From the NCBI GenBank assembly GCA_019739225.1, contig JAHHDT010000006.1:189823-253822 (forward strand): a DNA stretch of 64,000 bases, read 5' to 3'. This document shows, piece by piece, positions 38,347-56,807 of this stretch. Position 1 is the first letter of the stretch, and every line of letters begins with the position of its first letter. This DNA is from Aquamicrobium sp. (lineage in GTDB: Bacteria > Pseudomonadota > Alphaproteobacteria > Rhizobiales > Rhizobiaceae). Position numbers and translations under genes: made by a program. The notes under the pieces were generated by a model. The model was not told the DNA's origin. It did no database searches and saw nothing but the letters and a program-made list of their open reading frames with translations.

Positions 38347-38365
38347 ACTTTGAGGAGACACGATC

Positions 38366-39075: not shown

Positions 39076-39118
39076 ACGACCTCAACCGAAGTTGAGGTCA
39101 AGAGGCGCAAGCGGGGCG

Positions 39119-39805: not shown

Positions 39806-39815
39806 CGTCCTGATC

Positions 39816-40133
39816 CTAATCCATGTGGAAAACGCGTTGCAGCGGCACGACGACCGGCTCGTTGCGGTCGCCCACCTGCATGATGTCGGCCATGAAATCC
39901 CACCAGCGCCGGTTGATCTTTGTATGAGGCAGATGGTCCATCGTGTGGTCGTCGGCGCGCACGAGAGTGGCGAAGAGATGGTTCGTTTCCGGGTCGAGCC
40001 AGATCGTGTAGTCCGAGATGCCGGCCTCGCGAAGTGCTGCCAGCATCTGCGGCCATATCTCGTCGTGACGCCGCCGGTATTCTTCAGCTTGGCCGGGGTT
40101 CAGCACCATGCGAAACGCGATCCGTTCGGGCAT
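39816..40133 (-). CDS. rhaM: L-rhamnose mutarotase
   Basis: 105-aa ORF; IAFRMVLNPGQAEEYRRRHDEIWPQMLAALREAGISDYTIW is the typical RhaM/RhaU pattern. Confidence 0.9.
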   Translation of the reverse strand: MPERIAFRMVLNPGQAEEYRRRHDEIWPQMLAALREAGISDYTIWLDPETNHLFATLVRADDHTMDHLPHTKINRRWWDFMADIMQVGDRNEPVVVPLQRVFHMD

Positions 40134-40145
40134 CGTCCGATCCTT

Positions 40146-41435
40146 CTAGATAATGCCGCCGCCGGCCGCGGCGACCGCCGGGCGCTCTGCGGTGACCTTC
40201 GCGCGGTAGCCCGCCGCGCGATAGGCGGACACCGGGTCGATCGCTCCGCCCGCATTCAGCCGCGCCATGGCAAGGATCGGCTCGACATCCGTGCGGTAGG
40301 CTGCCTTTAGCGTCTGCGTGGCCATCAGCGCGTCGTTGTCTTCCTGAAATGCGGTGAGCGCGTCACGATCCACTAGCAGCGCCTGCGCATAGGCGCGCTG
40401 CACTTCCATGGCCGACAGCATCAGGCTCTCGATCGGGTCGGTGACGTTGTGGCTCTGGTCGAGCATGTGGGCGGGGTGGAAGGCTTTGCCGGCGGACAGT
40501 TCCGCATCGACCAGCTCGTTGAAGACGAGGAACAGGCGGTATGGATCGATGGACCCTGCGTCGAGATCGTCGTCGCCATATTTGCTGTCATTGAAGTGGA
40601 AGCCGCCGAGCTTGCCGAACTGGATCAGCCGCGAGACGATCATCTCGATGTTGACATTGGGTGCGTGGTGACCGAGGTCGACGAGGCAGAAGGCCTTTGG
40701 CCCCAGCTCCTTAGCGATGATGTAATTGGTGCCCCAGTCCTGCACCACGGTCGAATAGAAGGCCGGCTCGTACATCTTGTGCTCGGTGAAGAGCCGCCAG
40801 TCGTCTGGCAGGGCGGCATAGATGTCGGCCATCGCTTCCAGATAGCGTGAAAAAGCGCGGGCGAAATTCACCTGGCCGGGGAAGTTGGATCCGTCGCCGA
40901 TCCAGACGGTCAGCGCCTTCGAGCCGAGCGTCCTGCCGATCTCGATACATTCGAGATTGTGTTCCACCGCCTGCCGGCGCACGGCAGCATCGGCATGGCT
41001 GAGCGAGCCGAACTTGTAGGAAAGCTTCTGGTCCGCCGCGTCGGAAAAGGTGTTGGAGTTCATCGCGTCGAAGTCGAGGCCGAAGCGCGCGGCCGCCTGC
41101 TTCAGGCGCTTCGGGTCGGCCTTGTCCCACGGAATGTGCAGCGACACGGTCGGTGTGGCGCGGGTAAGCTGCTGGACGACAGCGCAGTCCTCGATCTTGT
41201 CGAAGATGTCGCGCGGTTCGCCGCCGCCGGGAAAGCGCGCGAAGCGGGTCCCGCCGGTGCCGACGCCCCATGACGGGATCGCGACGCCGAAGGCCTGCAC
41301 CTTTGCCAGCACCGCATCGATGGCGATGCCCCGGCGTGCGAGCTGCTCGCCGAGTGCGGCATAGTCGGATTTCAGCGCGGTCTGCCTGGCCTCGTTTTCC
41401 CGCGAGACGATGTCGGTTTCTATAATCGTTTCCAT
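40146..41435 (-). CDS. rhaI: L-rhamnose isomerase, rhizobial / Pseudomonas stutzeri type (RhaI)
   Basis: ATG at 41435 (ggagga 5 nt upstream) inside ORF 40146..41705 gives 430 aa: METIIETDIVSRENEARQ...IPSWGVGTGGTRFARFP... The xylose-isomerase-like TIM barrel matches the 430-aa RhaI type. Confidence 0.88.
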   Translation of the reverse strand: METIIETDIVSRENEARQTALKSDYAALGEQLARRGIAIDAVLAKVQAFGVAIPSWGVGTGGTRFARFPGGGEPRDIFDKIEDCAVVQQLTRATPTVSLHIPWDKADPKRLKQAAARFGLDFDAMNSNTFSDAADQKLSYKFGSLSHADAAVRRQAVEHNLECIEIGRTLGSKALTVWIGDGSNFPGQVNFARAFSRYLEAMADIYAALPDDWRLFTEHKMYEPAFYSTVVQDWGTNYIIAKELGPKAFCLVDLGHHAPNVNIEMIVSRLIQFGKLGGFHFNDSKYGDDDLDAGSIDPYRLFLVFNELVDAELSAGKAFHPAHMLDQSHNVTDPIESLMLSAMEVQRAYAQALLVDRDALTAFQEDNDALMATQTLKAAYRTDVEPILAMARLNAGGAIDPVSAYRAAGYRAKVTAERPAVAAAGGGII

Positions 41436-41455
41436 CTGGTCCTCCGTGCGGGGGC

Positions 41456-42301
41456 TCACCATGCGAAAGCCGGCAGCAGAAAGTCGGGCGGCGCGCCGTG
41501 CTCGGCAAACAGCCGCTCCCGCTCCGTGGCGGTGCTGGTTTCCAGTATGCCGGTTGCGACCAGCGCCGTGTTCAGCCCGGCCGCCCCGCCGCCCGCGATG
41601 TCGTGCTCTATGCTGTCGCCGACACAGACGACGCAGCCCAGCGCTGGATTGCCGAGCAGCTCGAGTGCCGCCTCGTAGATGCGGGGGAAGGGCTTGCCGA
41701 TCCACTCCACCGCGCCCCCTAGTTCCGCATAGAGTTCGGCTATCCGGCCGGCACCGAAGCGCGGTCCGACGCTCGTCAGCATCACCTTGTCGGGATTGGT
41801 GCAGAGACAGCGCACGCCACGGGCCGCAGCCGGCTCCAGCAGGCGGCGATAGTGATCGAGATCGTAGCGGTCGCCCTCACTGCCCGACAGAAGCAAGATG
41901 TCGGCGTCAGCACCGCTTTCCGTCACGGTCAGGGGCAGGCCTTCAATCGCCGAGCGATCGCCGTCGCGGGCGATGAGCAGGCAGCGGGCGTTGACGGTAT
42001 CGCTCAGTTCTTCGGCAAGCATGCGCCATGCGACCTCGCCGGACGACAGGAAATGGTCCCAGCTTCCAGGCTCGAAGCCCAGTCGCACCAGCCGCGCCTC
42101 GTTGGGGGCCGAGCGCTTCCCCGAATTGGACAGGAGCAGGCTCTTCTTGTCCGCCGCCTTCAGCCGTGACAGCGCCTCTACAGCGCCGGGATAGGGCGCG
42201 GCGCCATCGTGCAGCACGCCGAACTGGTCGAGCACGAAATAGTCGAACCGGGCTGCGAGTTCGCTGATCCCGGAAAGCGGTTTCGGTGCGGTCTTACTCA
42301 T
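41456..42301 (-). CDS. HAD superfamily subfamily IIA hydrolase (sugar-phosphate-phosphatase-like)
   Basis: 281-aa ORF. FVLDQFGVLHDG (DxxG nucleophile motif) and LLLSNSGKRS are present. Its ATG overlaps the FGGY kinase stop (ATGA). Confidence 0.85.
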   Translation of the reverse strand: MSKTAPKPLSGISELAARFDYFVLDQFGVLHDGAAPYPGAVEALSRLKAADKKSLLLSNSGKRSAPNEARLVRLGFEPGSWDHFLSSGEVAWRMLAEELSDTVNARCLLIARDGDRSAIEGLPLTVTESGADADILLLSGSEGDRYDLDHYRRLLEPAAARGVRCLCTNPDKVMLTSVGPRFGAGRIAELYAELGGAVEWIGKPFPRIYEAALELLGNPALGCVVCVGDSIEHDIAGGGAAGLNTALVATGILETSTATERERLFAEHGAPPDFLLPAFAW

Positions 42302-43575
42302 GCGGGCTCCCGAGCGTGTTCGAGCCCCTTCAGCGCCAGCCGCGCCGCGCCGGCGGCGGCCTGTTCGGAATGTGCCGACAGGAAAGGAACGCCGAGCCTG
42401 CGCTGGCGGATGGCGGTCCAGGCGGCATTGCCGGCGCCGCCGCCGACGCTGCGAACGGAGCGAAGCGCGGGCGCGCCAAGATCGGCGAGGCGGTCATAGC
42501 CGCGTTTTTCGATCGCCGCGATGCCTTCCAGCATGCCCTTCAGGAACGCGGCGTCCGATGCCGGTCTCGGTTCGAGGCGCGGCTGCAAGTTGGCGTCCAT
42601 GACCGGGAAGCGCTCGCCGGGCCCGAGCAGCGGGTAGTAGTCGAGGCCGGTTTCGTCCTGAGAATCGATTCCATCCGAGAGCCGCGCGATCTCATCGCCG
42701 GTGAAATACCGCGCAAGCACCCTGCCGCCCGTGTTCGACGCGCCGCCGGCGAGCCAGAGCTCGTTGATGCGGTGGCTGTAGACGCCGAATTCGGGGGCGA
42801 AGACGGGCTGGTCGCACAGGAGTTTCAGGGTCAGCGTCGAGCCCAGCACGGTGACGCCGTCGCCGGGCTCGCTCGCGCCCGTGGCGATGAACGACGCGCA
42901 ACCATCCGTCGTGCCGGCGACGATGGCGACGTCTTCGCCGAGGCCGAACCGTTGCGCCATGGTTGGCGCTACGGTGCAGACCGGCGTGCCGGGGGCAACC
43001 ACACGCGGCAGCAGTGCCGGCCGCAGACCGGTTGCGGCGATCCATTCGGGCCACCGCTTCGCGATGGGGTCGTAGCCGGTCTTGAGCGCATTGTTCTCGT
43101 CGGTCGTGTCGAAGCAGCCGGAAAGCTGCCCCGCGATCCAGTCGGCCTGATGCAGGACCTTGGCTACGCCTGGGACGCCCTGGAAGATCAGTGCCTTGGC
43201 GAGTCCGGACGTCGCGCCGTGGGCCGCGCTGTCGCGCGCGATGACCGGTGCGATGCGGGCAAGCAGGCCCTCGTCCCCGACCTTGTCGCTGTACATGAGC
43301 GGACGGGCCAGCGGCGTGCCGTCGGCATCGACTGGCAGCAGCGTGCCGGAGGTGCCGTCGACGGCGATCGCGCGCACAGAATATGGCTCGACGGCCATCA
43401 GCACCTGCTCCAGCGCGGTCTCGACGGCGCGCCACCAGAGGGCCGGATCGCGGGCGTCGGCGCCGTGGTCGGTCAGGGATGATGCGCCCTGGGCAACGAT
43501 GTCGAAGGCCGGCGTCATTGCGACCGCGCGCGCGCCGGATGTGCCGAGGTCGATGCCGATGGCGAGGGGCGTCAC
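42298..43575 (-). CDS. FGGY-family carbohydrate kinase (ribulokinase/xylulokinase-like, short form)
   Basis: GTG at 43575 inside ORF 42298..43911 gives 425 aa: VTPLAIGIDLGTSGARAV...GGASNTGG...SVGGGAGNAAWTAIRQ. The upstream part of the ORF translates repeat DNA. Confidence 0.85.
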   Translation of the reverse strand: MTPLAIGIDLGTSGARAVAMTPAFDIVAQGASSLTDHGADARDPALWWRAVETALEQVLMAVEPYSVRAIAVDGTSGTLLPVDADGTPLARPLMYSDKVGDEGLLARIAPVIARDSAAHGATSGLAKALIFQGVPGVAKVLHQADWIAGQLSGCFDTTDENNALKTGYDPIAKRWPEWIAATGLRPALLPRVVAPGTPVCTVAPTMAQRFGLGEDVAIVAGTTDGCASFIATGASEPGDGVTVLGSTLTLKLLCDQPVFAPEFGVYSHRINELWLAGGASNTGGRVLARYFTGDEIARLSDGIDSQDETGLDYYPLLGPGERFPVMDANLQPRLEPRPASDAAFLKGMLEGIAAIEKRGYDRLADLGAPALRSVRSVGGGAGNAAWTAIRQRRLGVPFLSAHSEQAAAGAARLALKGLEHAREPA

Positions 43576-43605
43576 CGGTGACGCTCCGGCTTGATGGCGG
43601 CAGTA

Positions 43606-43738
43606 CCCCCACCCCTCACCCCTCCCCACAGGGGGGAGGGGGATTCTGAACCGGAGACGCTCGGCCGAATCGGTTGCAGTGGAGACGAGGCGCTGACGCC
43701 CACCTCCCCCTTGTGGGGAGGGGTGAGGGGTAGGGGTG
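43606..43738. repeat. Palindromic intergenic repeat element, family B (two inverted 38-bp modules)
   Basis: cccccacccctcacccctccccacaggggggaggggg (43606-43642) and cccacctcccccttgtggggaggggtgaggggtaggggtg (43699-43738) are near reverse complements. Each module is itself a hairpin. Confidence 0.8.
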
Positions 43739-43780
43739 CGGCAGGCGCGCAACTGTCCATGTCGGGTATCCCAAGCACCA

Positions 43781-44836
43781 TCACGCGGACTTTCGCGCCG
43801 CCTTGCGGGCCAGTTCCTGCCGGTATTTCTCGGCGTCCCAATCGGTGAGCTGCAGGTGTTCTTCGGCGGTGAGCACACGCAGGGGCGCGCCGGGCGGGAT
43901 GCGCGCCGCAACGTCGGCTAGACAGCGCGCCATGGCGTCGGCGCTCGGCGTCGCGTCCCCGCGCATCAGCACGCCGATGCCGGGGAACACGATCGAGACC
44001 GGTGTTGTGCCGAGGCGCGCCACGACCGCTTGCGCATCTTCTCCCGGCAGCGCGATGGCCGAGCCCTCGCCAAGGAAGATGACATGGTCCGGATAGAGGC
44101 TGCCGCGCGCCGCGATTTCGGTGCTGGCGGGATCGGTGGCGACGGCATGGGCAGCGTCGCTTTCGGGCAGTCGGAAAGTTGCGACCGCGAGCGCACGCAA
44201 TTTCTCCATGTCGGCGGGGGGCGCGGAGCGCGGTTCGGTGGCGAGCCTTTGCGTGACGTCATTCAACAATGCTTCGGCCGCGTCGACGGTTTCGGCGGCG
44301 ACTACCAGCCCGTGATTGGCCAGCACCAGAACGTCGGGTCTCTTCGAGGAATGCTCCTCAATGGCCAGCGCCAGCGGCAGGCCCGGCCTTGCATAGGGCA
44401 CCAGCGCCCAGTTTAGGCCGTCGAGCCTTGTCGCCAGTTCCGCTTCGCAATCGGTTCGGACCGCAAGGGCTATGGTGTTGACGCAATGCACATGCACGAC
44501 AACGCGTTGCGGCATCAGCGCGTGCACCGTCGTCTCGATCGAGGGCCGCAGGCCGGATGCGCCGAGGCCGGGCACGACGAATTGTTCGGCCCGCTCGGCG
44601 GCCGGGTTCACGGACGAGACGGCGTCGAGCAGCGGTGCGATCTCGACCGGCACCATGATGTCGCGGTCGAGCGCATGGGCGAGCCATGTGCCCGAAGCCT
44701 TGATCCAGAGGATGCCGTCAGCCTTCAGCGAGGTGTTACCGCCGGCGCCCTGGATAAGAAGGGGATCGGAGCCGATCCGTGCCGAAAGCGCCCGCAGGTC
44801 GGCGAGCTCGACCTTTGGTGAAGCCGCTTTTCGCAT
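43781..44836 (-). CDS. Stand-alone class II aldolase-like protein, paralogue of the RhaD N-terminal domain
   Basis: ATG at 44836 inside ORF 43781..45262 gives 351 aa. IQGAGGNTSLKADGILWIKASGT and VVHVHCVNTIA parallel VTNYGGGNTSSKI...VLWVKGSGGD and YVDHMHPDAIIA in the 700-aa RhaD at 56808. Confidence 0.8.
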   Translation of the reverse strand: MRKAASPKVELADLRALSARIGSDPLLIQGAGGNTSLKADGILWIKASGTWLAHALDRDIMVPVEIAPLLDAVSSVNPAAERAEQFVVPGLGASGLRPSIETTVHALMPQRVVVHVHCVNTIALAVRTDCEAELATRLDGLNWALVPYARPGLPLALAIEEHSSKRPDVLVLANHGLVVAAETVDAAEALLNDVTQRLATEPRSAPPADMEKLRALAVATFRLPESDAAHAVATDPASTEIAARGSLYPDHVIFLGEGSAIALPGEDAQAVVARLGTTPVSIVFPGIGVLMRGDATPSADAMARCLADVAARIPPGAPLRVLTAEEHLQLTDWDAEKYRQELARKAARKSA

Positions 44837-45035
44837 GGTGGCGATCCTTTCCCTTGTCTGACTGCCCGTGACGACCGTTGCCGACCGGCGGGCAGTTCGG
44901 GAGAGGCGGTGCCCCTCCCGGGTTCCGACCCCTGGAGCAACGGGCGTTCTGACGAACGCAGTTCCGTTGCTCCAGTTTCGTTTTCCTAGCCGCATTTGTG
45001 CGACGCCAGACAATTCCGCCTGGCTGCAAAATGCT

Positions 45036-46142
45036 CTAGAAGTCGAAGTCGTTGATGTTGTCCTTTGTGAACACGAAGGGCGCGCCAAGAAGGATCTCCG
45101 AGCCGTTGATGACCTGGAGTTCGCCCAGCTTGCCGGCCTCAACCGACGTGGCGCCCGGCTGAAGCGTTCCATCGGCCACTGCGCGCAGCACGTAGGCTGC
45201 CGCATAGCCGAGGTCGACCGGGTTCCACAGCACCACCGACTTGACGCAGTCGGAAGCGACATAGGGCTTCATGGCGTTGGGCGTGGCGAGACCGACAACG
45301 GCGACGTTGCCGCACTGTCCTGCCTGCGTCACCGCATCGGCGGCAGCCGGCGTGGCGACGCTGGTCATGCCGAGTATGCCCTTCATCTCGTCGCCATACT
45401 TGTTGATGAGCGTGTTGGCCTGGTTGAAGGACAGGATGTTGTCTTCCTGAGCCTCGACCGTCTCCAGCCACTTCATGTTCGGGTAGCACGCGCTCTGGTA
45501 GGCCTCCATCTCGGCGATCCAGCGCGCCTGGTTCGGCGTGGTGAAGGTCGAGGTGACGATGGCGAATGCGCCGTCCTCGCCGATCTCGGCCGCCATCGCG
45601 TCGATCATCGACTTTGCGATGCCGTTGAACTCGGCCTGGTTGACGAACCACTGGCGCGCATCCGGCTGCGAATTGGCGTCGTAGCCGACGACATTGATGC
45701 CGGCGGCAAGCGCCTTCTTCAGCACCGGCGAGATCGCGACCGGATCGTTGGCGGCGAACAGGATGCCGTCGACGCCGCTGGTGATGTAGTTGTCGATCAG
45801 GGTGATCTGGTCGTCGATATTGGCGCGGCTGGGGCCGTCGGTCTTGGCATTCATCGTGCCCATCTCGGCGGCCGCTTCGGCGATGCCCTTCGAGGTGGCG
45901 TTGAAGTAGCCGATGCCGACGAGCTTCGGCACGTCGACCACGGTCAGCGTCTTGCCCTTGCGGTCGGGGGCGTCGGTCGGCTCGCCGCCGTCATAGGGAA
46001 CCGCAGCCGCCGTGGCCGCAGCCCCGTCGCAGGCGAGCGGATTGGTCGGCAGGTCGTCGCCGCCGGTCCAGGTCGACTGTGCGTGGCTGAGGCTGGTCGA
46101 AAACGACAAGGCCAGAATTGCAGACAGAACTATCTTACCCAT
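45036..46142 (-). CDS. ABC transporter periplasmic sugar-binding protein, RhaS/LsrB type
   Basis: ATG at 46142 (ggagga upstream). The signal peptide is MGKIVLSAILALSFSTSLSHA. VGIGYFNATSKGIAEAA...VVLWNPVDLGYAAAY resembles rhamnose/AI-2-type binding proteins. Confidence 0.85.
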   Translation of the reverse strand: MGKIVLSAILALSFSTSLSHAQSTWTGGDDLPTNPLACDGAAATAAAVPYDGGEPTDAPDRKGKTLTVVDVPKLVGIGYFNATSKGIAEAAAEMGTMNAKTDGPSRANIDDQITLIDNYITSGVDGILFAANDPVAISPVLKKALAAGINVVGYDANSQPDARQWFVNQAEFNGIAKSMIDAMAAEIGEDGAFAIVTSTFTTPNQARWIAEMEAYQSACYPNMKWLETVEAQEDNILSFNQANTLINKYGDEMKGILGMTSVATPAAADAVTQAGQCGNVAVVGLATPNAMKPYVASDCVKSVVLWNPVDLGYAAAYVLRAVADGTLQPGATSVEAGKLGELQVINGSEILLGAPFVFTKDNINDFDF

Positions 46143-46203
46143 GTTTTCCTCCACTGAGCGTCGAGGCACCCGCGAGCGGCGGTGCCCGGCGAAAGCGTTC
46201 CTC

Positions 46204-47148
46204 CTATCGGGAGCCGCTCCTCCCGAATATGTTGCTGACCAGTATGGCCAGTATCAGCACGGCGCCGATCAGCATGATCGTGCCGTCGCCCTTGACCCCG
46301 GCGAGCGACAGGCCGTTTTTCAGCGCCTGGATGAGGCAGAGCCCGATGATCGTGCCGAGGATCGTGCCGCGGCCGCCGAATATCGACGTGCCGCCGAGAA
46401 CCACCGCGGTGATCGCGTCGAGCTCGATGCCGGTGCCCATGTCGGAGCGCGTCGTCGATACGCGCGACACGAAGATCACGGCTGCCAGCGACGCCGCGAA
46501 GCCCGAGGCGGTGTAGAGCGCGAGTTTCGTCTTCTCGACCGAAAGGCCCGAAAAGCGGCTGGCGACCTCGTTGGAACCGATGGCGTAGACCGTTCGTCCC
46601 CAGCGCGTATAGGCGAGGATGATCGCGGCGATGATCGCGGCGGCGAAAAGGATCCAGAGCTGTGTCGGCACGCCAAGCACCTGGCCCTGGCCGAGCACGT
46701 AGAACCAGTCGGGATAGCCGCGCACCGAACGGGCCTGGCTGATGCCTTCGGCCAGGCCGCGATAGAGCGCCAGCGTCGCCAGCGTCGCGATCAGCGGCGG
46801 CACGCGGAAGCGGGTGATGATGAAGCCGTTCATGAAGCCGGCAAGGGTGCCGGCCGCGATGGCCGCGACGATGGCCATCGGCAGAGGCATGCCGACATTC
46901 TGCCAGAACACGCCGAGCAGGATCGCCACGAGCCCTAGGATCGAGCCAACGGAAAGGTCGATGCCGCCGGTGGCGATAACGAAGGTCATGGCGATCGCGA
47001 TCAGGCCGATCTCCGTCATCAGCCGGCCCTGATTGAGCAGGTTGGAGACGGTGAAGAAGCGGTCGGACTGCCACGACAGCACGACAAGTACCAGCACGAG
47101 GAGCAGCGCCAGAAACGTCTCGTGGCGGATGAGGGAGCGAAGGTTCAT
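46204..47148 (-). CDS. Sugar ABC transporter permease (RbsC/AraH-type)
   Basis: 314-aa hydrophobic ORF; TGGIDLSVGSILGL and GGTSIFGGRGTILGT motifs. Confidence 0.9.
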   Translation of the reverse strand: MNLRSLIRHETFLALLLVLVLVVLSWQSDRFFTVSNLLNQGRLMTEIGLIAIAMTFVIATGGIDLSVGSILGLVAILLGVFWQNVGMPLPMAIVAAIAAGTLAGFMNGFIITRFRVPPLIATLATLALYRGLAEGISQARSVRGYPDWFYVLGQGQVLGVPTQLWILFAAAIIAAIILAYTRWGRTVYAIGSNEVASRFSGLSVEKTKLALYTASGFAASLAAVIFVSRVSTTRSDMGTGIELDAITAVVLGGTSIFGGRGTILGTIIGLCLIQALKNGLSLAGVKGDGTIMLIGAVLILAILVSNIFGRSGSR

Positions 47149-47158
47149 GTTCGCTCCC

Positions 47159-48160
47159 TCATGTCCGCCGGTGCCGGCGCAGCATGTCGGCCAGCACCGT
47201 CGCCAGGATCAGGAGGCCGATGACGGCCCGCAGCCAGTAGGCGGAGACATTGATGAAGATCAGCGCCGAGCCGATCGTGGCGAACAGGATGGTCGCCAGC
47301 GTCGAGCCGATGACCGTGCCGGAACCGCCGAGGATCGACACGCCGCCGATGACGGTCGCGGTGATGATCGTCAGTTCGAGGTTCGGCGGCACCGTCGACT
47401 GGATAACCTGGAGCTGCGTGGCGAACAGGATTGCCGCCACGCCGGCGAATGCGCCGTGGATGGCGAAGACGGAGACCAGCCGCCGCTCGACGGGGATGCC
47501 GGTGGCGACTGCCGCCTCCGGGTTGCCGCCGATGGCGTAGATGGAGCGGCCGAATGCCGAATAACGCATCCACAGGAAGGCCGCGATGGTCAGGACGATC
47601 ATGAACAGGAACGGCACGGGCAAGCCGAGCAGCCGCTTTTGCGCGATCAGGAAATCGGGTGGCAGGTCGCTGATCCAGGTGCCGCCGGTGACGCTGATGA
47701 GGCCGCCGCGCAGGATCGACAGCGCGCCCAGCGTGACGACGATGGAGGGTATCTTCGCGTAGGCGACGAGCACGCCGATGACCGTGTTGACCGCCATGCC
47801 GACGAATATCGGCGCAACCAGCGCGAACCAGATCGGATAGCCGGAGACGGCCAGCGTTCCGGCCACGGTCGCCAGCACGCCGATCAGCGCGCCGACGGAG
47901 ACATCGATGTTTCCGGTCATGATGACCATGGCCATGCCGATGGCGGCGACCGCGATATAGGCGTTGCCGGAAAAGATGGTGACGAGGTTGTTGGCGTTGA
48001 CGAAGCGCGGATTGACAAGCGTCACCACCACGAACAGCAGCATGATGGCGGCCAGCACCACGCATTCCTGGCCGTATTCGGCGACGATGCGGCGCAGCAG
48101 GCCGGGCCGCTTGTGGTCGGTCTGCGGGCGGACGGGGGGAAGGTTCACCGCCATGCTCAT
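47159..48160 (-). CDS. Sugar ABC transporter permease (RbsC/AraH-type)
   Basis: 333-aa hydrophobic ORF; TGNIDVSVGALIGV and GGVSILGGSGTVIGS. Its start overlaps the ATPase stop (TGATG). Confidence 0.9.
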   Translation of the reverse strand: MSMAVNLPPVRPQTDHKRPGLLRRIVAEYGQECVVLAAIMLLFVVVTLVNPRFVNANNLVTIFSGNAYIAVAAIGMAMVIMTGNIDVSVGALIGVLATVAGTLAVSGYPIWFALVAPIFVGMAVNTVIGVLVAYAKIPSIVVTLGALSILRGGLISVTGGTWISDLPPDFLIAQKRLLGLPVPFLFMIVLTIAAFLWMRYSAFGRSIYAIGGNPEAAVATGIPVERRLVSVFAIHGAFAGVAAILFATQLQVIQSTVPPNLELTIITATVIGGVSILGGSGTVIGSTLATILFATIGSALIFINVSAYWLRAVIGLLILATVLADMLRRHRRT

Positions 48161-49668
48161 CAGGCCGCCTCCGCGCCGCGATGCGCCGTCATGGCGGCGC
48201 CGACGCGTTCGGGCGTCGCGTCGGCCCGGTCGATCTCGGCTGTGACGCGGCCACCGCTCATCACCAGCATGCGATCGCTCATGCCGAGCACTTCGGGCAG
48301 TTCACTCGAGATCATCAGGATGGCGACGCCGCGTTTGACCAGCTCGCCCATGATCGTGTGGATTTCGGCCTTCGCGCCAACGTCGACGCCGCGTGTGGGT
48401 TCATCGAGAATCAGCACCTTCGGCTCGGTCTCCAGCCATTTGGCGATCACCACCTTCTGCTGGTTGCCGCCGGACAATTCGCTGACCGGCTGGTCGATGT
48501 CGCGGCAGCGGATGCCGAACCGCCTGACGGCCTCCCTCGCGCGCTCCGCCTCGGCGCGGGCCTTGATGAAGATGCCCGAAGACAGCTTCTCGATGGTGGC
48601 CATGGAAACGTTCTTGCGGATCGCCATCGGCCGCACGAGGCCTTGCAGCCCGCGATCCTCCGGCACGTAGGCGATGCCGAGATCGCGCGCCTGGCGTGGC
48701 GAGCCGATGCGCACCGGCACGCCTTCCATGAGGATTTCGCCCGACGTCGCCGGCGTCATGCCGAAGAGGGTCAGCGCGAGCTCGGTGCGACCGCTACCAA
48801 CGAGACCGGCAATGCCGAGGATCTCGCCGCGCCGGAGCCTGAACGAGATGTCCTGCACATGGCGGCCGTGATTGAGGCTCTTCACCTCCAGCACGGTTTC
48901 GCCGATCTCGGCCTCGGCCTTGGGGAACAGGCTGTCGATGGGGCGGCCGACCATCATCGAGACCAGTTGCTGCTCGTTTACCTCGCCGATGTCGCAGGTG
49001 GCGACATGCGCGCCGTCGCGCAGGACGGTGACGCGATCTGCAAGCGCGAAAATCTCGGACATGCGGTGGCTGACATAGACGATGCCGACGCCGCGTTCCC
49101 GCAATTGGCGGACCACCTGCATCAGCCGCTGGACGTCGGATTCCACCAGCGAGGCCGTCGGTTCGTCCATGATGAGGATGCGCGCGTTGCGGCTCAGCGC
49201 CTTGGCGATCTCCACCCGCTGGCGCTGCGCGACAGACAGCGTCAGCACCTTGGCGTCGACGTCGAGATCGTGGGTGTCGAGCTGGTCGAGCAGTTCGCGG
49301 GTGCGCGCGCGCACGGCCGCCCAGTCGATCCAGCCGGCGCCGGTGCGGGGATAGTGGCCGAGAAAGACGTTTTCGGCGACGGTCAGCTCGGGGAAAAGCA
49401 GAAGCTCCTGATAGACGGTGGCGATGCCTGCGGCGGTCGCGTCACCGGTGGCGGCGAACTTCATCTCCTCACCGTTCACGGTGATGGTGCCGCTATCCGG
49501 CTTGTATAGCCCCGCCATCATCTTGATGAGCGTCGACTTGCCGGCGCCGTTCTCGCCGAGCAGCGCATGGACCTCGCCTTCGCGCACGTCGAAATCGACA
49601 TCCTTCAGAACCCTGATGCCTACGAAGGACTTCGACATGCCGCTGAGGCTGATGAAGGGGGCGGTCAT
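48160..49668 (-). CDS. Sugar ABC transporter ATP-binding protein (duplicated ABC domains)
   Basis: ATG at 49668 inside ORF 48160..49791 gives 502 aa: [22 protein letters not shown], and the second domain [15 protein letters not shown]. The upstream part of the ORF translates repeat DNA. Confidence 0.92.
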   Translation of the reverse strand: MTAPFISLSGMSKSFVGIRVLKDVDFDVREGEVHALLGENGAGKSTLIKMMAGLYKPDSGTITVNGEEMKFAATGDATAAGIATVYQELLLFPELTVAENVFLGHYPRTGAGWIDWAAVRARTRELLDQLDTHDLDVDAKVLTLSVAQRQRVEIAKALSRNARILIMDEPTASLVESDVQRLMQVVRQLRERGVGIVYVSHRMSEIFALADRVTVLRDGAHVATCDIGEVNEQQLVSMMVGRPIDSLFPKAEAEIGETVLEVKSLNHGRHVQDISFRLRRGEILGIAGLVGSGRTELALTLFGMTPATSGEILMEGVPVRIGSPRQARDLGIAYVPEDRGLQGLVRPMAIRKNVSMATIEKLSSGIFIKARAEAERAREAVRRFGIRCRDIDQPVSELSGGNQQKVVIAKWLETEPKVLILDEPTRGVDVGAKAEIHTIMGELVKRGVAILMISSELPEVLGMSDRMLVMSGGRVTAEIDRADATPERVGAAMTAHRGAEAA

Positions 49669-49708
49669 GGGCGGGCTCCCTTGTGGCCGCGGACGTTGCG
49701 GGTGAGGC

Positions 49709-49866
49709 GCCCCCTCTCCGCCTCGCTCGCGCTCGGCACCTCTCCCCCACTCCGTGGGGGCGAGGAACCCAAGCTGGAAAAGCGCCGGCATCGCGGCCGC
49801 AGTTCCTCACCCCTGCCGAAGGCGGGGGAGAGGTGTCGAGCTCGAAGAGCGAGACGGAGAGGGGGG
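49709..49866. repeat. Palindromic intergenic repeat element, family A copy 2, inside the sugar gene string
   Basis: The left module is gccccctctccgcctcgctcgcgctcggcacctctcccccactccgtgggggcgaggaaccc. The right module is gttcctcacccctgccgaaggcgggggagaggtgtcgagctcgaagagcgagacggagagggggg. Both are near-identical in core to the copy at 2563-2700. Confidence 0.85.
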
Positions 49867-49873
49867 ACCCGGA

Positions 49874-51307
49874 TCATACGTGACGTTCCTCCCCGACTCT
49901 CGCGGAAGCCGCTGCCTTTGCCGCCTGCCGCCGGTCCGCGGCCAGTTTGCGCCAGCGGTCGCGATAGGCTTCCAGGCCGGGGATGCTGCTAGGGGCGACG
50001 GAGACCGTCTCGTCGCGGAAGGGCGAGAGGCCGAGCGCCTTGAAGGCGAGGGCGGCGGCACCGGTGGCCGACCCCTCGCTCATGGTCGAGCGGGCGACTG
50101 TCTGGGACGGACGAAGCTGGCCGAGCATCGCGGTGAACAAGTCGATCCTTGCGAGGCCGCCATCGACGACAAGCAGGTTGTCGGAACGGATGAGGTCGAG
50201 CGACAGGTCGGTCATCATGACCACGTAGAGCGCGGCGACGGCGGCGCGTTCCTCGCCCTCGACATCGCCGCCGACGATCTCGCCGGTCGTTTCCGGAAAC
50301 GGGCCGCCGGCTGCCCATGACGGCATGGCGAAGATGCCGCGCGCCATCACGCGCTCGACCGCATCCCGTGTGATCGGCTTGTCCCAGCCTCCGCTGATGA
50401 CGTCATATTCGCGGCCGCCCATGAAGCGAAGCGACGGCGCCGGCTCGCCGTTGACGGTGACGTTTGCGATCATGTCGCGTTCGCCGTCGAGTGCATCCAG
50501 CGGGCAGTCGAGGTTGATGATGATGACCCAGGTTCCGGTCGAGACCAGCGTGAAGCCGGACAGCCCGGTCATCCGGTAATAGGCGAGGGCGGCGTTGGAA
50601 TCGTGGACGCCATTGTGGACGTTCAATGTGCGATGCGCGCCGTCGGGAAGCGTGACCTCGGTGGTGCCGACCACTGCACCGGCTGGCGCGATCTCCGGAA
50701 AGAGATCGCGCCAGCCCAGCCGGTCTACCAGGGAGGAAAAGTCACGCTTCAGGGGAGCCCAGAGCTGGTTGTGCGCACCGAGATAGGACCATTCGGCCAG
50801 CGGCCTGCCGGTAAAACGCCAGACCCAGTATTGCGGGAAGCAGAGGATGGACCGCGTCTTCGCGAAGCGTTCGGGCTCCTCGGTTTCGAGCCAGTGGATG
50901 TGGCGCGCGATCGAGAAGCCGAGCGGCAGGCGCGGCGTGTAGGTCTCGGAGAAATCCGGCAGGATCGGGTCGATTTTCGCGGCGACCGCGTCGGGAATCT
51001 CCTGCTCGTAGTCGAGGATCGGATGAAGCAGTTCGCCGTCGCGCACCAGCGCGAAGGCGCAGCCATGCGCCGAGATCATCAGGCCGGTGACGCCATGCAT
51101 GGCGGTGACATCAGCGAGTTCGGCGCTCATCCACGAAAACAGGGCCTCGTCGTCCAGCACGCCGCGGCCACGGAAATCCGTCCAGACGGGTTTCGTGCGC
51201 CGTTCGTCCAGCAGCTTCCCGTCCGGCGCGAAGACGAACAGCTTCGAGTTCGTCTTGCCGAGATCGAAGACGGCGAGCGGGCCGGCTTTCGGGGGCGGCC
51301 TCGTCAC
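49874..51307 (-). CDS. FGGY-like carbohydrate kinase, RhaK-like
   Basis: 477-aa ORF (GTG start overlapping the upstream stop, GTGA). LAVFDLGKTNSKLFVF and LVSTGTWVI resemble the rhizobial rhamnose kinase type as I recall it. It lies directly upstream of the ATPase gene. Confidence 0.75.
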   Translation of the reverse strand: MTRPPPKAGPLAVFDLGKTNSKLFVFAPDGKLLDERRTKPVWTDFRGRGVLDDEALFSWMSAELADVTAMHGVTGLMISAHGCAFALVRDGELLHPILDYEQEIPDAVAAKIDPILPDFSETYTPRLPLGFSIARHIHWLETEEPERFAKTRSILCFPQYWVWRFTGRPLAEWSYLGAHNQLWAPLKRDFSSLVDRLGWRDLFPEIAPAGAVVGTTEVTLPDGAHRTLNVHNGVHDSNAALAYYRMTGLSGFTLVSTGTWVIIINLDCPLDALDGERDMIANVTVNGEPAPSLRFMGGREYDVISGGWDKPITRDAVERVMARGIFAMPSWAAGGPFPETTGEIVGGDVEGEERAAVAALYVVMMTDLSLDLIRSDNLLVVDGGLARIDLFTAMLGQLRPSQTVARSTMSEGSATGAAALAFKALGLSPFRDETVSVAPSSIPGLEAYRDRWRKLAADRRQAAKAAASARVGEERHV

Positions 51308-52197
51308 GGCCTATGCTCCGCGGCGACAAGCTCGTGCTTGCGACGCGCGGTCTCCATGCCGACTTCGATGAAGCGCCGCGCGTGGCGCGCCAGCTCGACA
51401 TTGTCGGACCAGAGGTTGCGCCAGATCGCGGTCTTGCGCGACAGGTTCTCGTCGACGATCTCGGACGAGAAGGATTCGAAGGAGACGTCCTTCGCATAAC
51501 CGACTGCGACGAGCGCGTCGAAGATGGCCGGCCAATCGATGCTGCCGGTGCCGAGGAAGCCGCGATGGCTTTCGCCGATATGGAAATAGCCGATCCTGTC
51601 GGCCGCGTGCCTGATGGCAAGCGCAGCGTCCGCCTCCTCGATGTTCATGTGAAACGTGTCGAGGTGCAGGAAGATGTTGTCCGACCCGGAGGTCTCGATA
51701 TAGGCGAGGCCCTGGGACGCGGTGTTGAGCAGGTTGCTCTCGAAGCGGTTGACGATCTCGACATTGAGCGAGACTCCGGCGCGTTTGGCACGCTCGGCGA
51801 CTTCGGCAAGCGTGTGGGCGCTGCGGTTCCAGCCGTCCTTCGTCGGCATCTCCGTCTGCAGGCCATGGCTCGTCTGCAGGATGCCAGCAAGGACATTGCC
51901 GCCAAGATCGCGGGTGAGCGCGACCATGTCATCGAGAATCTCGACGCCGTGTGCGGCGACTGCCTTGTCGGCGTTGGAGATGTCGCCTTCTTCCGGCAGG
52001 CCAATGCTGATCGCCACGCCCAGCCCGTGTCCGGCGATGCGTCTGGCGAGACGGTCGATGTCGACGTCGGCCGGATCGAGATAGGAGAATTCGATCAGGT
52101 CGAAACCTGCTTCCTTCGTCCGCTCCAGTGTGCGGTCGAGCGCCGACTGGTCGGATGCCGCCGACCAGACGAAGGAATGAATGCCGACATGCGCCAT
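51304..52197 (-). CDS. Xylose-isomerase-like TIM barrel protein, ketose 3-epimerase (DTE/DPE) family-like
   Basis: 297-aa ORF. LNVEIVNRFESNLLNTA, HLDTFHMNIEE and GYFHIGESHRGFLGTGSIDW match the metal-binding pattern (E, D, H, E) of free-ketose 3-epimerases. Confidence 0.8.
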   Translation of the reverse strand: MAHVGIHSFVWSAASDQSALDRTLERTKEAGFDLIEFSYLDPADVDIDRLARRIAGHGLGVAISIGLPEEGDISNADKAVAAHGVEILDDMVALTRDLGGNVLAGILQTSHGLQTEMPTKDGWNRSAHTLAEVAERAKRAGVSLNVEIVNRFESNLLNTASQGLAYIETSGSDNIFLHLDTFHMNIEEADAALAIRHAADRIGYFHIGESHRGFLGTGSIDWPAIFDALVAVGYAKDVSFESFSSEIVDENLSRKTAIWRNLWSDNVELARHARRFIEVGMETARRKHELVAAEHRP

Positions 52198-52264
52198 GGT
52201 TCTTTCCCCGTTCGAAATGGAAGGCTTCCGGCCGCGATCGACGCGGCCGGAAAAATACGCGTGG

Positions 52265-53203: not shown

Positions 53204-53281
53204 TTGCTTCTCCTCCGACTGCGCCGCGCCTCTCGCGGCGCGATGCTTATGTCCGGCCGGCGGCCGGCGCGTTGAGGCCAA

Positions 53282-54193: not shown

Positions 54194-54268
54194 GCCGAGT
54201 GCGGCGAATGCAACGCGGAAGCGCGCCTGCCGGGCGCCGTCGCTCGGTGCGGTGCTTGCTCTTGTCAG

Positions 54269-55792: not shown

Positions 55793-55793
55793 G

Positions 55794-56573: not shown

Positions 56574-56662
56574 GATTCCTCCTCCCGTGGCGCCGCGAAA
56601 CGCGTCGTATGAGTTAAGTTACGCAAAATGACGCCGCACGCAAGCGGATAGTGACAATCTTT

Positions 56663-56708
56663 GCTCATATCGCAATGCAAACAAAGGCTATTGCGACGCA
56701 ATATGAGC
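56663..56708. promoter_or_regulatory. Imperfect 46-bp palindrome with TTGCGA(T/C) repeats, candidate DeoR operator
   Basis: gctcatatcgcaat-N13-attgcgacgcaatatgagc. A third ttgcgat copy lies at 56723-56729, next to a ttgaca-N17-tgaatt promoter-like sequence (56728-56756) facing rhaD. Confidence 0.4.
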
Positions 56709-56807
56709 GACTTCACTCTTTTTGCGATTGACAAACCGCATGTGTTGGCCTGAATTGCCGGCAGCGAAGCGGCACTCCCTTCGTGCCGCGCCGGGAGGAG
56801 TGTGGAG

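Follow-up and report, generated by a model that had tools for sequence, protein, structure and literature searches.

The window, a 64,000-nucleotide stretch of DNA from the soil-type alphaproteobacterium Aquamicrobium sp., contains known parts in a new combination: a broad-range L-rhamnose isomerase (RhaI) and a free-sugar 3-epimerase are encoded in one long string. Our preferred reading, held at about even confidence, is that the string is a DeoR-controlled super-operon in which RhaI and the epimerase act on free sugars as parallel entries to one kinase/aldolase core; judging from the comparison with related genomes, the sugars are probably L-rhamnose, L-lyxose and L-pentuloses. The string covers about 18 kb from the DeoR gene (56573) to a FucA-like aldolase gene (39119), with all genes on the minus strand, and includes both enzymes, as the preliminary description had stated. 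Its genes and the divergent rhaD are:

56802..58910, plus strand: RhaD, bifunctional rhamnulose-1-phosphate aldolase/short-chain dehydrogenase, divergent from the string (NF006189, TIGR02632)
55794..56573, minus strand: regulator of the DeoR/GlpR family that heads the string (UlaR, AgaR and SrlR models below cutoffs)
54269..55792, minus strand: ATPase of an Rbs-like (CUT2) ABC importer (AraG, XylG and RbsA models below cutoffs)
53282..54272, minus strand: CUT2 permease, RbsC-like with 246 bits (longest ORF 53282-54193; apparent 5' frameshift)
52265..53203, minus strand: periplasmic solute-binding protein, Rbs-like, in the epimerase arm (CUT2 family)
51304..52197, minus strand: free-ketose 3-epimerase, ortholog of the M. 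loti L-ribulose 3-epimerase (PF01261 TIM barrel, 297 aa)
49874..51307, minus strand: RhaK-like FGGY kinase, KinK (PF21546 FGGY_C_2 and FGGY_N)
45036..49668, minus strand: RhaSTPQ-like CUT2 importer (ATPase 48160-49668; permeases 47159-48160 and 46204-47148; binding protein 45036-46142)
43781..44836, minus strand: LalA-like class II aldolase-fold protein, 351 aa (PF00596)
42298..43575, minus strand: RbtB-like FGGY kinase, 425 aa (top PDB match 5HTN, SePSK, E 7e-96)
41456..42301, minus strand: RbtC-like HAD-IIA phosphatase (TIGR01459, 285 bits, cutoff 104)
40146..41435, minus strand: RhaI, L-rhamnose isomerase of the P. stutzeri/rhizobial type (TIGR02629 and 2HCV alignment)
39816..40133, minus strand: RhaM/RhaU L-rhamnose mutarotase (TIGR02625, 106 bits, cutoff 99.6)
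39119..39805, minus strand: FucA1-like class II aldolase of 228 aa, with which the conserved part of the string ends (NF005984, 218 bits, cutoff 264)

The ORFs are supported by a GC3 of 0.79-0.91 across the string. Several genes overlap or nearly abut: the start of the ATPase gene at 54269..55792 lies 1 nt past the DeoR stop, and the epimerase stop overlaps the GTG start of KinK as GTGA. We infer that the string is co-transcribed under DeoR. Rhizobial sugar loci often cluster, and adjacency alone is therefore weak evidence for shared function. The string may be divided into three blocks. The first would be a Phyllobacteriaceae-type L-rhamnose block (divergent RhaD, DeoR, RhaK-like kinase, RhaSTPQ-like importer, RhaI and RhaM), the second would comprise a lalA-rbtB-rbtC-like triad (aldolase fold, ribulokinase-like FGGY kinase, HAD phosphatase) with the fucA1-like aldolase, and the third would be four genes inserted after DeoR and before the kinase, encoding the Rbs-like ABC importer and the epimerase.

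RhaI (429 aa, start METIIETD) is of the P. stutzeri/rhizobial isomerase type, as first proposed: in the profile search it scores 866.7 bits with TIGR02629 ‘L_rham_iso_rhiz’ (cutoff 646.75), and its alignment with P. stutzeri L-RhI 2HCV runs the full length (E 8e-230). The closest solved structure to the epimerase is the M. loti L-ribulose 3-epimerase (L-RE) 3VYL (E 7e-149, residues 1-297 of both), with 229/297 = 77% identity and zero gaps, followed by an Arthrobacter ketose/allulose 3-epimerase and then by DTE/DPE enzymes. The metal-site motifs EIVNRFE (E147), HLD (D180), H206 and FESF (E241) are retained, and models of hydroxypyruvate isomerases, IolE-type proteins and sugar-phosphate epimerases score far lower on this protein. 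The description of a TIM-barrel enzyme with an E/D/H/E site acting on unphosphorylated ketoses is thereby upheld, and the alternative of an inosose or hydroxypyruvate isomerase is disfavoured. The specificity could differ from that of the M. loti ortholog because 68 positions differ from 3VYL, including 108-110 (QTS versus SAG).

The relative activities of M. loti L-RE are 100% on L-ribulose and 42% on L-xylulose (the preferred pair), 24% on D-tagatose (the best hexulose), 20% on D-ribulose, 14% on L-psicose, 4% on L-fructose, 2.3% on D-allulose (D-psicose) and 1.7% on D-fructose. By our own stereochemical reading, its preferred substrates have the C4 configuration of L-rhamnulose. For L-RhIs, L-lyxose ranks second as a substrate, behind L-rhamnose. 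These profiles bear on the first route of the preliminary description, in which RhaI would turn imported D-allose into D-psicose and the epimerase would then form D-fructose, all before phosphorylation. Both conversions have precedent, the first in P. stutzeri-type L-RhI and the second in the ketose 3-epimerase family, and both genes lie with a CUT2 importer in one string. We nevertheless find this route extremely improbable: D-allulose and D-fructose are the poorest of the ortholog's substrates given above, D-allose is the poorest of those listed for this L-RhI type (3.0-7.5 U/mg), the string proteins scanned gave neither a PfkB- or ROK-type hexose kinase match nor an Als match above cutoff, and most genomes have the epimerase and its importer without RhaI.

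Concerning the importers, the binding protein at 52265-53203 scores 115 bits with RbsB (cutoff 337) and 72 bits with AlsB (cutoff 335), the latter also counting against the D-allose route; its top PDB match, 4RWE, has no named ligand. The importer claimed to be Rbs/Als-like is thus CUT2/Rbs-like and adjacent to the epimerase, but equivalent to neither Als nor Rbs. Its binding protein is 88-92% identical to Mesorhizobium and Bradyrhizobium counterparts, its permease 89% to a Mesorhizobium permease, and its ATPase 79% to the Mesorhizobium module ATPase. The permease gene has its conserved MTDK start at 54272, in a different reading frame from the remainder. In the second importer, the binding protein at 45036-46142 scores 241 bits with TIGR02637 RhaS (cutoff 342), and its top PDB matches are the rhamnose-binding proteins 5BQ3 and 4KVF; the importer proteins are 81-90% identical to those of Aminobacter, and identity to R. 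etli RhaS is only 33%.

The remaining proteins show a similar pattern of relatedness. RhaD (NF006189 1227 bits, cutoff 634; TIGR02632 1082 bits) is 86% identical to an Aminobacter protein and 73% to R. etli RhaD. DeoR shares 80% identity with its Aminobacter counterpart, 75% with the Mesorhizobium module DeoR and 36% with the canonical R. etli RhaR; for KinK the values are 81% with the Aminobacter kinase, 53-59% with the epimerase-module kinases and 36% with R. etli RhaK; the FucA1-like aldolase is 85% identical to its Aminobacter counterpart and 48% to S. meliloti fucA1.

The gene order of the window is also found in Bradyrhizobium sp. STM 3562 and ARR65, in a 96-99% identical relative and in two sequencing runs; the co-occurrence of RhaI and the epimerase is not a one-off. 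A 9-gene epimerase module (HAD<FGGY<LalA-like | DeoR>kinase>ABC>epimerase) is kept without RhaI in 10 Mesorhizobium, Phyllobacterium, R. cauense, Neorhizobium, Oryzicola, Antarcticirhabdus, R. tropici CIAT 899, R. grahamii and Sinorhizobium sp. B11; RhaI is absent within 10 kb of the module in about 20 genomes. The constant partners of the epimerase in Mesorhizobium, Rhizobium, Shinella and Sinorhizobium are the Rbs-like ABC importer, DeoR and the RhaK-like kinase, and the divergent class-II-aldolase/FGGY-kinase/HAD triad is conserved with it in the same four genera. Rhizobial RhaK binds RhaT, an ATPase, and ABC transport depends on RhaK (PMC9025865), a role that fits a kinase always adjoining an importer. 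Aminobacter plasmids have the order of the window, including RhaI and RhaM, but without the importer-plus-epimerase block (proteins 72-90% identical); a search confined to the plasmids found the epimerase on none of them, though one may lie elsewhere in those genomes. The string of the window is an Aminobacter-type locus with an inserted four-gene importer-plus-epimerase block. On these plasmids and in the modules each enzyme is found without the other, and so neither RhaI nor the epimerase depends on the other, which does not agree with the dedicated RhaI-epimerase pair first put forward.

Gene identities, orthology to characterised enzymes and this modular architecture are direct observations; from them we infer the substrates, the kinase regiochemistry and aldolase, not 4-epimerase, chemistry for the LalA-like protein. 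Under the parallel reading, different free sugars would enter, one through each of the two importers. RhaI would convert L-rhamnose to L-rhamnulose and L-lyxose to L-xylulose, and in parallel the epimerase would convert L-ribulose to L-xylulose, all unphosphorylated; both arms would yield 2-ketoses of the (3R,4S) L-xylulose/L-rhamnulose configuration. The single transporter-coupled RhaK-like kinase would phosphorylate those ketoses, most likely at C1, and RhaE-type aldolases, RhaD on the 6-deoxyhexulose and the LalA-like protein on the pentulose, would release DHAP and lactaldehyde or glycolaldehyde. Ribulose epimers would be handled in some further step by the RbtB-like kinase and the RbtC-like phosphatase. 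Of the earlier claim of catabolic use of the enzyme pair on free sugars, remodelling before phosphorylation in a catabolic operon survives, but the sequential routes are unsupported. Since neither free L-pentuloses nor L-lyxose is common in nature, the true substrate may be some other compound that has never been assayed. The aldolase version of the parallel model does not account for what the RbtB-like and RbtC-like proteins do.

The LalA-like protein is nearest to the RhaD/RhaE aldolase domain (29% identity over 200 aa with that of RhaD; SIET, HxH and NHG motifs retained). It could instead be an AraD-like sugar-phosphate 4-epimerase, since sequence cannot separate the two. The triad is likened to lalA-rbtB-rbtC of S. 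meliloti on the basis of the same eryB/eryC-flanked position in the S. meliloti-type polyol locus; identities are 59% (LalA-like), 60% (RbtB-like) and about 56% (RbtC-like, partial alignment), the three names having been given to the S. meliloti proteins by gene order, and all lie above the cutoffs set for homologs by Geddes et al. 2013 (PMC3599248). In S. meliloti this sub-operon is needed for L-arabitol and adonitol, and lalA is described as an L-arabitol catabolic gene (PMC3599248). A 4-epimerase would permit a sequential route: L-lyxose to L-xylulose by RhaI, to L-ribulose by the epimerase, to L-ribulose-5-phosphate by the RbtB-like kinase and to D-xylulose-5-phosphate by the LalA-like protein. 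This would follow the E. coli L-xylulose (Sgb/Ula) logic, but with 3-epimerisation shifted to the free sugar. It draws on the best substrate pair of the ortholog, the second-best L-RhI substrate, the ribulokinase-like subfamily of the RbtB-like kinase, the class II fold that the LalA-like protein, with metal motifs kept, shares with AraD, the co-linear RhaI and epimerase, and the L-arabitol role of lalA, which an L-Ru5P 4-epimerase would in our view fit. We regard it as unlikely: RhaI accompanies the triad on Aminobacter plasmids that lack the epimerase, and about 20 genomes have the epimerase and the triad with no nearby RhaI; it is the RhaE aldolase domain that the LalA-like protein matches, with no AraD model among the matches listed at E <= 1e-5; and the RhaK-like kinase and HAD phosphatase are left without a role.

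Several different architectures bring the epimerase module, or its core, together with rhamnose genes: in the window and Bradyrhizobium the two are interleaved, in Shinella it abuts canonical rhaI-rhaD, and in L142 and L108 they are neighbours. In L108 the triad has the epimerase operon on one side and the pentitol genes on the other. The second route of the preliminary description, from L-rhamnose through L-rhamnulose to 6-deoxy-L-psicose, leads away from the ketose usable by the kinase and aldolase of the locus; the reverse direction is chemically conceivable. So reversed, the Rbs-like importer would take up a 6-deoxy-L-ketohexose or a precursor, and the epimerase would convert 6-deoxy-L-psicose to L-rhamnulose for the RhaK-like kinase and RhaD. 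The joined architectures, the RhaK-like and RhaE-like character of the module kinase and LalA-like protein, and the ortholog's use of L-psicose and L-fructose, the 6-hydroxy analogues of the proposed pair, agree with this. However, 6-deoxy-L-psicose is not known to occur free in nature, the published M. loti L-RE characterisation gives no figures for 6-deoxy ketoses, the stand-alone module has no lactaldehyde-handling gene, and the genetic tie of the triad is to pentitols, not deoxyhexoses (PMC3599248); we consider it decidedly doubtful.

In a sister clade of the epimerase (49-50% identity), the gene belongs to a tagatose/hexitol-type cluster that also encodes PfkB, GatZ/KbaZ and SDRs, which shows the same design, with a free-ketose epimerase as entry enzyme. 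This, and the rank of D-tagatose as best hexulose of the ortholog, would suit a ketohexose route, in which D-tagatose (or L-psicose), once imported, would be converted by the epimerase to D-sorbose (or L-fructose), be phosphorylated at C1 and be split by the LalA-like protein into DHAP and glyceraldehyde; the RbtB-like kinase, given a role here, would phosphorylate glyceraldehyde. Such a route seems highly unlikely: the module of this epimerase clade has no tagatose-type kinase or GatZ gene, SePSK (5HTN), the solved structure closest to the RbtB-like kinase, has an ATPase stimulated by D-ribulose (glyceraldehyde not being among the five compounds tested), and the triad is linked to pentitols (PMC3599248).

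Four non-coding elements accompany the genes:

56574..56801, no strand: divergent DeoR/RhaD control region (228-bp intergenic)
52225..52253, minus strand: GC-rich hairpin between the binding-protein and epimerase genes (12-bp stem, 9 G-C pairs, weak T tail)
49710..49865, no strand: imperfect palindromic element inserted between KinK and the next ATPase gene (nested inverted repeats, 91-95% complementary)
43600..43742, no strand: second palindromic element (43-nt arms)

The control region has blocks in common with Aminobacter and Bradyrhizobium (GTCAATC..AAAAAGA, CTTGCG and GCGTAAGTTA) and gave no match to the sigma-70 consensus. In the one possible RNA run, depth is flat and genome-like. The first palindromic element is missing in relatives: the genes are adjacent in L168 and L169, and run X20 skips 49656-49929. 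Around the second, run X18 skips 43588-43745.

The genes analysed form a run of ~18 kb on the minus strand, unbroken from 56573 to 39119, and RhaD is divergent from the DeoR regulator at its head. The G+C content of the window is 61-71%, and GC at the third codon position sharply divides real genes from shadow ORFs. Both the L-rhamnose isomerase (L-RhI; here RhaI) and the epimerase belong to the same string, as the preliminary description had stated.

Features of the gene string (window positions)
55794-56573, minus strand: DeoR regulator, first in the string (profile matches)
54269-55792, minus strand: ABC ATPase of the first importer (profile matches)
53282-54193, minus strand: permease of the first importer (longest ORF)
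52265-53203, minus strand: Rbs-like binding protein (profile matches)
51304-52197, minus strand: TIM-barrel epimerase (profile matches)
49874-51307, minus strand: FGGY_C_2 kinase, RhaK-like (Pfam)
45036-49668, minus strand: second ABC importer (ATPase, two permeases, RhaS-like binding protein)
43781-44836, minus strand: class-II-aldolase-fold protein, LalA-like
42298-43575, minus strand: FGGY kinase, RbtB-like
41456-42301, minus strand: HAD-IIA phosphatase, RbtC-like
40146-41435, minus strand: RhaI
39816-40133, minus strand: RhaM
39119-39805, minus strand: FucA-like aldolase
56802-58910, plus strand: RhaD, divergent from DeoR

The epimerase and kinase genes overlap as GTGA, and the ATPase gene of the first importer starts 1 nt past the DeoR stop. 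RhaD, RhaI and the mutarotase all score above the cutoffs of their curated models. The permease of the first importer has an apparent 1-nt frameshift within its first ~10 codons (54193-54272): its conserved MTDK start overlaps the ATPase stop, out of frame with the remaining gene, and the longest ORF comprises 303 aa vs 329-331 aa in the loci L081, L168 (Bradyrhizobium sp. ARR65) and L169 (a close relative). This could be a true lesion or a sequencing error. At a distance of 43 nt past the FucA-like gene there is a 133-aa ORF (38674-39075, minus strand, GC3 0.84) that matched neither Pfam nor NCBIfam families; no counterpart was seen in the Aminobacter locus described below.

Concerning expression signals, a scan of 38000-57500 gave no sigma-70-type promoter, and terminator-like sites in this range occur at chance level; only a hairpin at 52225-52253 (minus strand) stands out. 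It is located between the binding-protein and epimerase genes, pairs over 12 bp (nine of them G-C) with only a weak tail of T residues, and looks like an intra-operon stabiliser or attenuator more than a full terminator. The 10-mer TCGCAATGCA is found exactly in both promoters flanking RhaD (56670 and 59081), was picked post hoc and is not statistically meaningful; considered as a DeoR operator, its matches with up to one mismatch occur at chance level. No 8-mer is common to at least four of six orthologous control regions, which share only loosely similar blocks by eye. Near-identical sequence is present in 24 sequencing runs, almost all of DNA. The single possible RNA run has flat depth over the locus and DNA-like coverage, and is therefore uninformative on operon structure or induction.

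The epimerase is a (beta/alpha)8 xylose-isomerase-like TIM barrel (PF01261, 127 bits, residues 25-254), and its assignment to the free-ketose 3-epimerases, made in the preliminary description, holds. Its closest relative of solved structure is the L-ribulose 3-epimerase of M. loti (MlLRE, PDB 3VYL): the two 297-aa proteins align without gaps over residues 1-297 (498 bits, 229 identical residues, 77% identity), compared with 248 bits for 5ZFS/8YEB. The motifs around E147, D180, H206 and E241 are the same as in 3VYL and identically placed, the metal-ligand role of these residues being taken from the family, and the long C-terminal region is also conserved. The 68 substitutions relative to MlLRE include residues 108-110. 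Against the D-psicose 3-epimerase equivalog (NCBIfam NF051856) the protein reaches 172 bits, below the cutoff of 300, and is thus placed in the L-ribulose 3-epimerase branch and not in the DPE clade. It scores 51 bits as an L-ribulose-5-P 3-epimerase, 81 as a hydroxypyruvate isomerase and 30 on IolE; it belongs neither to the hydroxypyruvate isomerases nor to the inosose dehydratases or sugar-phosphate epimerases. The 77%-identical ortholog is known to epimerise unphosphorylated ketoses at C3; by analogy this would be the reaction of the window enzyme too, and to this extent the earlier emphasis on free sugars was right. The relative activities of MlLRE (table of Uechi et al. 2013, reproduced in PMC8167858) are L-ribulose 100% (230 U/mg), L-xylulose 42%, D-tagatose 24%, D-ribulose 20%, L-psicose 14%, D-sorbose 6%, D-xylulose 5%, L-fructose 4%, D-psicose 2.3% and D-fructose 1.7%. 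In the literature searched, ketose 3-epimerases appear in biotechnology only, with no physiological role, and MlLRE itself only as a rare-sugar biocatalyst.

The family proposed for RhaI is equally well supported: it scores 866.7 bits on TIGR02629 (cutoff 646.75) and aligns at full length with the P. stutzeri L-RhI 2HCV (E 8e-230, residues 5-430 of the translated stretch), with no sequence-level difference from the P. stutzeri and M. loti enzymes detected. Judging from these relatives, RhaI would accept a wide set of aldoses (L-rhamnose, L-lyxose, L-mannose, D-ribose, D-allose). L-RhIs of this type prefer L-rhamnose, followed by L-lyxose, then L-mannose, then D-ribose and lastly D-allose, and the M. 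loti enzyme has 3.0 U/mg on D-allose. The suggested route from D-allose through D-psicose to D-fructose is not supported by these data, since each enzyme would have to use one of its worst substrates: D-allose comes last in the ranking of the isomerases, and MlLRE retains 2.3% and 1.7% activity on D-psicose and D-fructose. Nor is the first importer, described earlier as Rbs/Als-like, equivalent to Als or Rbs: against cutoffs of 335 for AlsB and 337 for RbsB, its binding protein reaches 72 and 115 bits. Among the scanned string proteins the AlsA and AlsC models also remain below their cutoffs, the AlsK and AlsE models are not listed, and no PfkB- or ROK-type hexose kinase was matched. Solved structures give no ligand clue for the Rbs-like binding protein: its best match, 4RWE, carries no ligand name, and polyol-binding mycobacterial proteins match it at only about E 1e-30.

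We scanned one genome per species and then applied tblastn with all window proteins. Among the Rhizobiales, 17 genomes whose epimerase is at least 63% identical to that of the window share a fixed nine-gene module; these include ten Mesorhizobium, Phyllobacterium trifolii, Rhizobium cauense, Neorhizobium, Oryzicola and Antarcticirhabdus. In this module the class-II-aldolase-like, FGGY and HAD genes run in one direction and, divergently, the genes for DeoR, an FGGY_C_2 kinase, an ATPase, a permease, an Rbs-like binding protein and the epimerase in the other. RhaI, RhaM and true RhaD are absent within reach of the module in all 17 genomes, and in two Mesorhizobium contigs (gene calls and Pfam) it is flanked by unrelated genes. 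The same stand-alone module is present in R. tropici CIAT 899, R. grahamii and Sinorhizobium sp. B11. Because it is conserved without RhaI, the conserved partners of the epimerase are the importer, DeoR, the RhaK-like kinase and the three genes of the aldolase-like protein, FGGY kinase and HAD phosphatase (the triad), and not RhaI. The Mesorhizobium orthologs of the epimerase lie in this module, the source type of the importer-plus-epimerase block of the window, whereas in the window epimerase and importer are part of a rhamnose-type operon. The module also occurs close to rhamnose genes: in Shinella it adjoins a canonical rhaI-rhaD pair divergent from rhaR-rhaS, and in the metagenome contig L142 the kinase-DeoR pair and the divergent triad are next to a canonical-type rhamnose block. 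In a second metagenome contig (L108, Ga0102590_1000887) the full epimerase module with lalA-rbtBC is flanked by genes for a RhaS-like binding protein and for a RhaK-like kinase of canonical type; ery/pentitol genes (EryB-, FucA-, RbtA- and EryA-like, mpt-type ABC) form a further contiguous block, and the triad sits between them and the epimerase operon. A sister clade of the epimerase (49-50% identity) is found at 10001-18144 of L030 (Rhizobium sp. CCGE 510) and in the similar loci L027-L036, with a CUT1 ABC importer, a ROK regulator, a PfkB kinase, a GatZ/KbaZ-like protein, two SDRs and a GFO/IDH oxidoreductase. In this tagatose/hexitol-type setting a free-ketose 3-epimerase may also be the entry enzyme, which suggests a recurring design.

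The reverse arrangement, RhaI without the epimerase, is found on Aminobacter plasmids; together with the module lacking RhaI, this speaks against an obligate RhaI-epimerase pair. These plasmids carry RhaD and, divergently, DeoR, kinase, ATPase, two permeases, RhaS-like binding protein, class-II-aldolase-like protein, FGGY, HAD, RhaI, RhaM and FucA-like genes, i.e. the window order minus the block of ATPase, permease, binding protein and epimerase; the epimerase was on none of the plasmids searched. All of their proteins are 72-90% identical to those of the window, and the four block proteins share 78-89% identity with their counterparts in the Mesorhizobium module. By this order and these identities, the window locus is of the Aminobacter type and carries the importer-plus-epimerase block as an insert that separates DeoR from the kinase. 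We considered whether the kinase came with the epimerase module as its own kinase and rejected this, as it shares 81% identity with the Aminobacter kinase and only 53-59% with the module kinases. The core of DeoR, RhaK-like kinase and triad therefore exists in three combinations: with importer and epimerase, with importer, RhaI and RhaM, and with both (the window). The composite order is also present in Bradyrhizobium sp. STM 3562 and ARR65, in a 96-99% identical relative and in two sequencing runs. Identities between Bradyrhizobium and window proteins are 64-91% (importers 79-91%), and these comparisons suggest horizontal transfer of the whole ~18-kb string between the Phyllobacteriaceae-like window type and Bradyrhizobium.

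The triad consists of three contiguous genes (44836 to 41456) in the order of S. meliloti lalA-rbtB-rbtC, and its products are 59% (class II aldolase), 60% (FGGY kinase) and, over a partial alignment, 56% (HAD) identical to those of S. meliloti Ak57; the homolog cutoffs used for lalA, rbtB and rbtC in PMC3599248 are 49%, 51% and 40%. LalA as the aldolase-fold protein, RbtB as the kinase and RbtC as the phosphatase are assigned from gene order. S. meliloti needs lalA-rbtB-rbtC for L-arabitol and adonitol, the genetic data being from this species only; the lalA-rbtBC sub-operon is described as mobile and forms an independent locus in all three Mesorhizobium genomes, and fucA1 is dispensable (Geddes et al. 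2013, PMC3599248). A metagenome scan with the class-II-aldolase-like protein revealed the triad in a further, frequent context, identified by Pfam and tblastn as the S. meliloti-type polyol locus: mpt-type ABC, EryA-like kinase, 2-hydroxyacid dehydrogenase, FucA-like aldolase, GlpD-like EryB, triad, EryC-like TIM barrel, DeoR and TpiB. The annotated S. meliloti record has the same order, with RpiB last. The window resembles this erythritol/adonitol/L-arabitol locus in the three families and their order, and its FucA-like protein is 48% identical to fucA1; it differs in that the triad accompanies an isomerase and a free-ketose epimerase, not a polyol kinase and a dehydrogenase. The whole 64-kb window contains no EryA-, RbtA-, EryC- or TpiB-type gene, and mpt-type ABC queries matched other ABC genes only (25-41% identity). 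Among proteins of solved structure, SePSK (E 7e-96) is closest to the RbtB-like kinase; of five compounds tested on SePSK, D-ribulose is stimulatory. The two FGGY kinases of the window are not covered by the FGGY family survey. The response of SePSK, the position of the triad in L108 and the pentulose preference of the epimerase point to pentulose metabolism. The LalA-like protein is closest to the aldolase half of RhaD, and its metal and acid/base motifs are kept.

Concerning the rhamnose-type parts, the window shares with the rhaRSTPQUK-rhaDI locus of R. leguminosarum and R. etli a RhaD divergent from a DeoR-led operon with ABC importer, mutarotase and FGGY_C_2 kinase, and RhaI is present. 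The gene order differs, RhaI being within the long operon and not behind RhaD, and the window has eight extra genes (triad, FucA-like aldolase, one additional importer, epimerase). The regulator, binding protein and kinase are just 33-36% identical: the kinase and DeoR belong to the same families as RhaK and RhaR (36% to the R. etli proteins), and the binding protein of the second importer is 33% identical to R. etli RhaS and scores 241 bits on TIGR02637 (RhaS), below the cutoff of 342. Rhizobial RhaK phosphorylates rhamnulose, and ABC transport depends on this kinase, which interacts with the ATPase RhaT by binding (PMC9025865); this fits the constant place of the kinase beside an importer.

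Directly downstream of RhaD there is a GlpD gene (800 bits), followed by two UgpC-like ATPase genes and a permease-like gene (59055-63687, plus strand); this stretch resembles a glycerol or glycerol-3-phosphate uptake locus, and the arrangement of GlpD and the two ATPase genes is kept in L169. GlpD as an EryB-type polyol-phosphate dehydrogenase was rejected on its score on the GlpD model, on the ATPase and permease-like genes downstream, as in glycerol loci, and on the lack of the EryA-, EryC- and TpiB-type genes in the window.

In the simplest reading, RhaI and the epimerase would be alternative entry enzymes to the common core. A free sugar would be converted by either of them to an L-rhamnulose- or L-xylulose-type ketose and then to its 1-phosphate, which would be cleaved to DHAP and lactaldehyde by RhaD or to DHAP and glycolaldehyde by the LalA-like protein. 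We prefer this pathway on the basis of stereochemistry, the RhaK family of the kinase and the likeness of the LalA-like protein to the aldolase half of RhaD. The preferred aldoses of L-RhIs (L-rhamnose, L-lyxose, L-mannose) yield (3R,4S) ketoses, as does the conversion of L-ribulose to L-xylulose, and this configuration is cleaved by rhamnulose-1-phosphate-type aldolases. E. coli mutants use L-lyxose via the rhamnose pathway, L-xylulose-1-phosphate being cleaved by RhaD. In an alternative to be taken seriously, L-ribulose-5-P would be the product of the RbtB-like kinase and the LalA-like protein would be a 4-epimerase, in which case RhaI and the epimerase could act sequentially on L-lyxose; the E. 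coli Sgb/Ula systems provide a 3-epimerase/4-epimerase route from L-xylulose-5-P. In chemical logic both schemes resemble E. coli, whether a (3R,4S) ketose is handled by a 1-kinase with an aldolase or D-xylulose-5-P is reached by epimerisation at C3 and C4. RhaB accepts L-xylulose (cited in PMC3245297). The window enzymes, however, are non-orthologous (RhaK-like, RhaE-like), and 3-epimerisation would act on the free sugar and not on a phosphate ester.

Returning to the preferred 1-phosphate pathway, we propose tentatively, as a possibility less likely than not, that the MlLRE-type epimerase is the committed entry enzyme of a Rhizobiales free-pentulose (L-ribulose/L-xylulose) module, whose RhaK-like 1-kinase and RhaE-like L-xylulose-1-phosphate aldolase (LalA) are common with L-lyxose/L-arabitol catabolism. 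As free L-pentuloses are rare, the actual substrate may lie outside the compounds assayed so far. While each part is known, the literature searched describes neither how they are combined here nor the physiological setting that this implies for the L-ribulose 3-epimerase clade. If the proposal is true, it would be the first natural pathway built on a free-ketose 3-epimerase, and lalA-rbtBC would gain a biochemical function. Ketose 3-epimerases and P. stutzeri-type L-RhIs are workhorses of industrial rare-sugar production, and the L-ribulose 3-epimerase clade now has a genomic setting with its own importer, a transporter-coupled RhaK-like kinase and lalA-rbtBC; the same core is reused with the isomerase replacing the epimerase. 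LalA, RbtB and RbtC, defined so far by genetics only, acquire testable biochemical functions. The locus further illustrates clearly how an operon is built by inserting a module, and the apparent transfer between Phyllobacteriaceae and Bradyrhizobium.

Two intergenic gaps of the string contain G/C-rich imperfect palindromes, at 43600-43742 (43-nt arms) and 49710-49865 (arms of 19 and 22 nt). In relatives the genes are adjacent at these places, and since the sequencing runs X18 and X20 lack exactly these stretches, the palindromes are strain-specific REP/MITE-like insertions inside the operon. Comparable inverted repeats are also found at 16966-17098 and 3817-3946.
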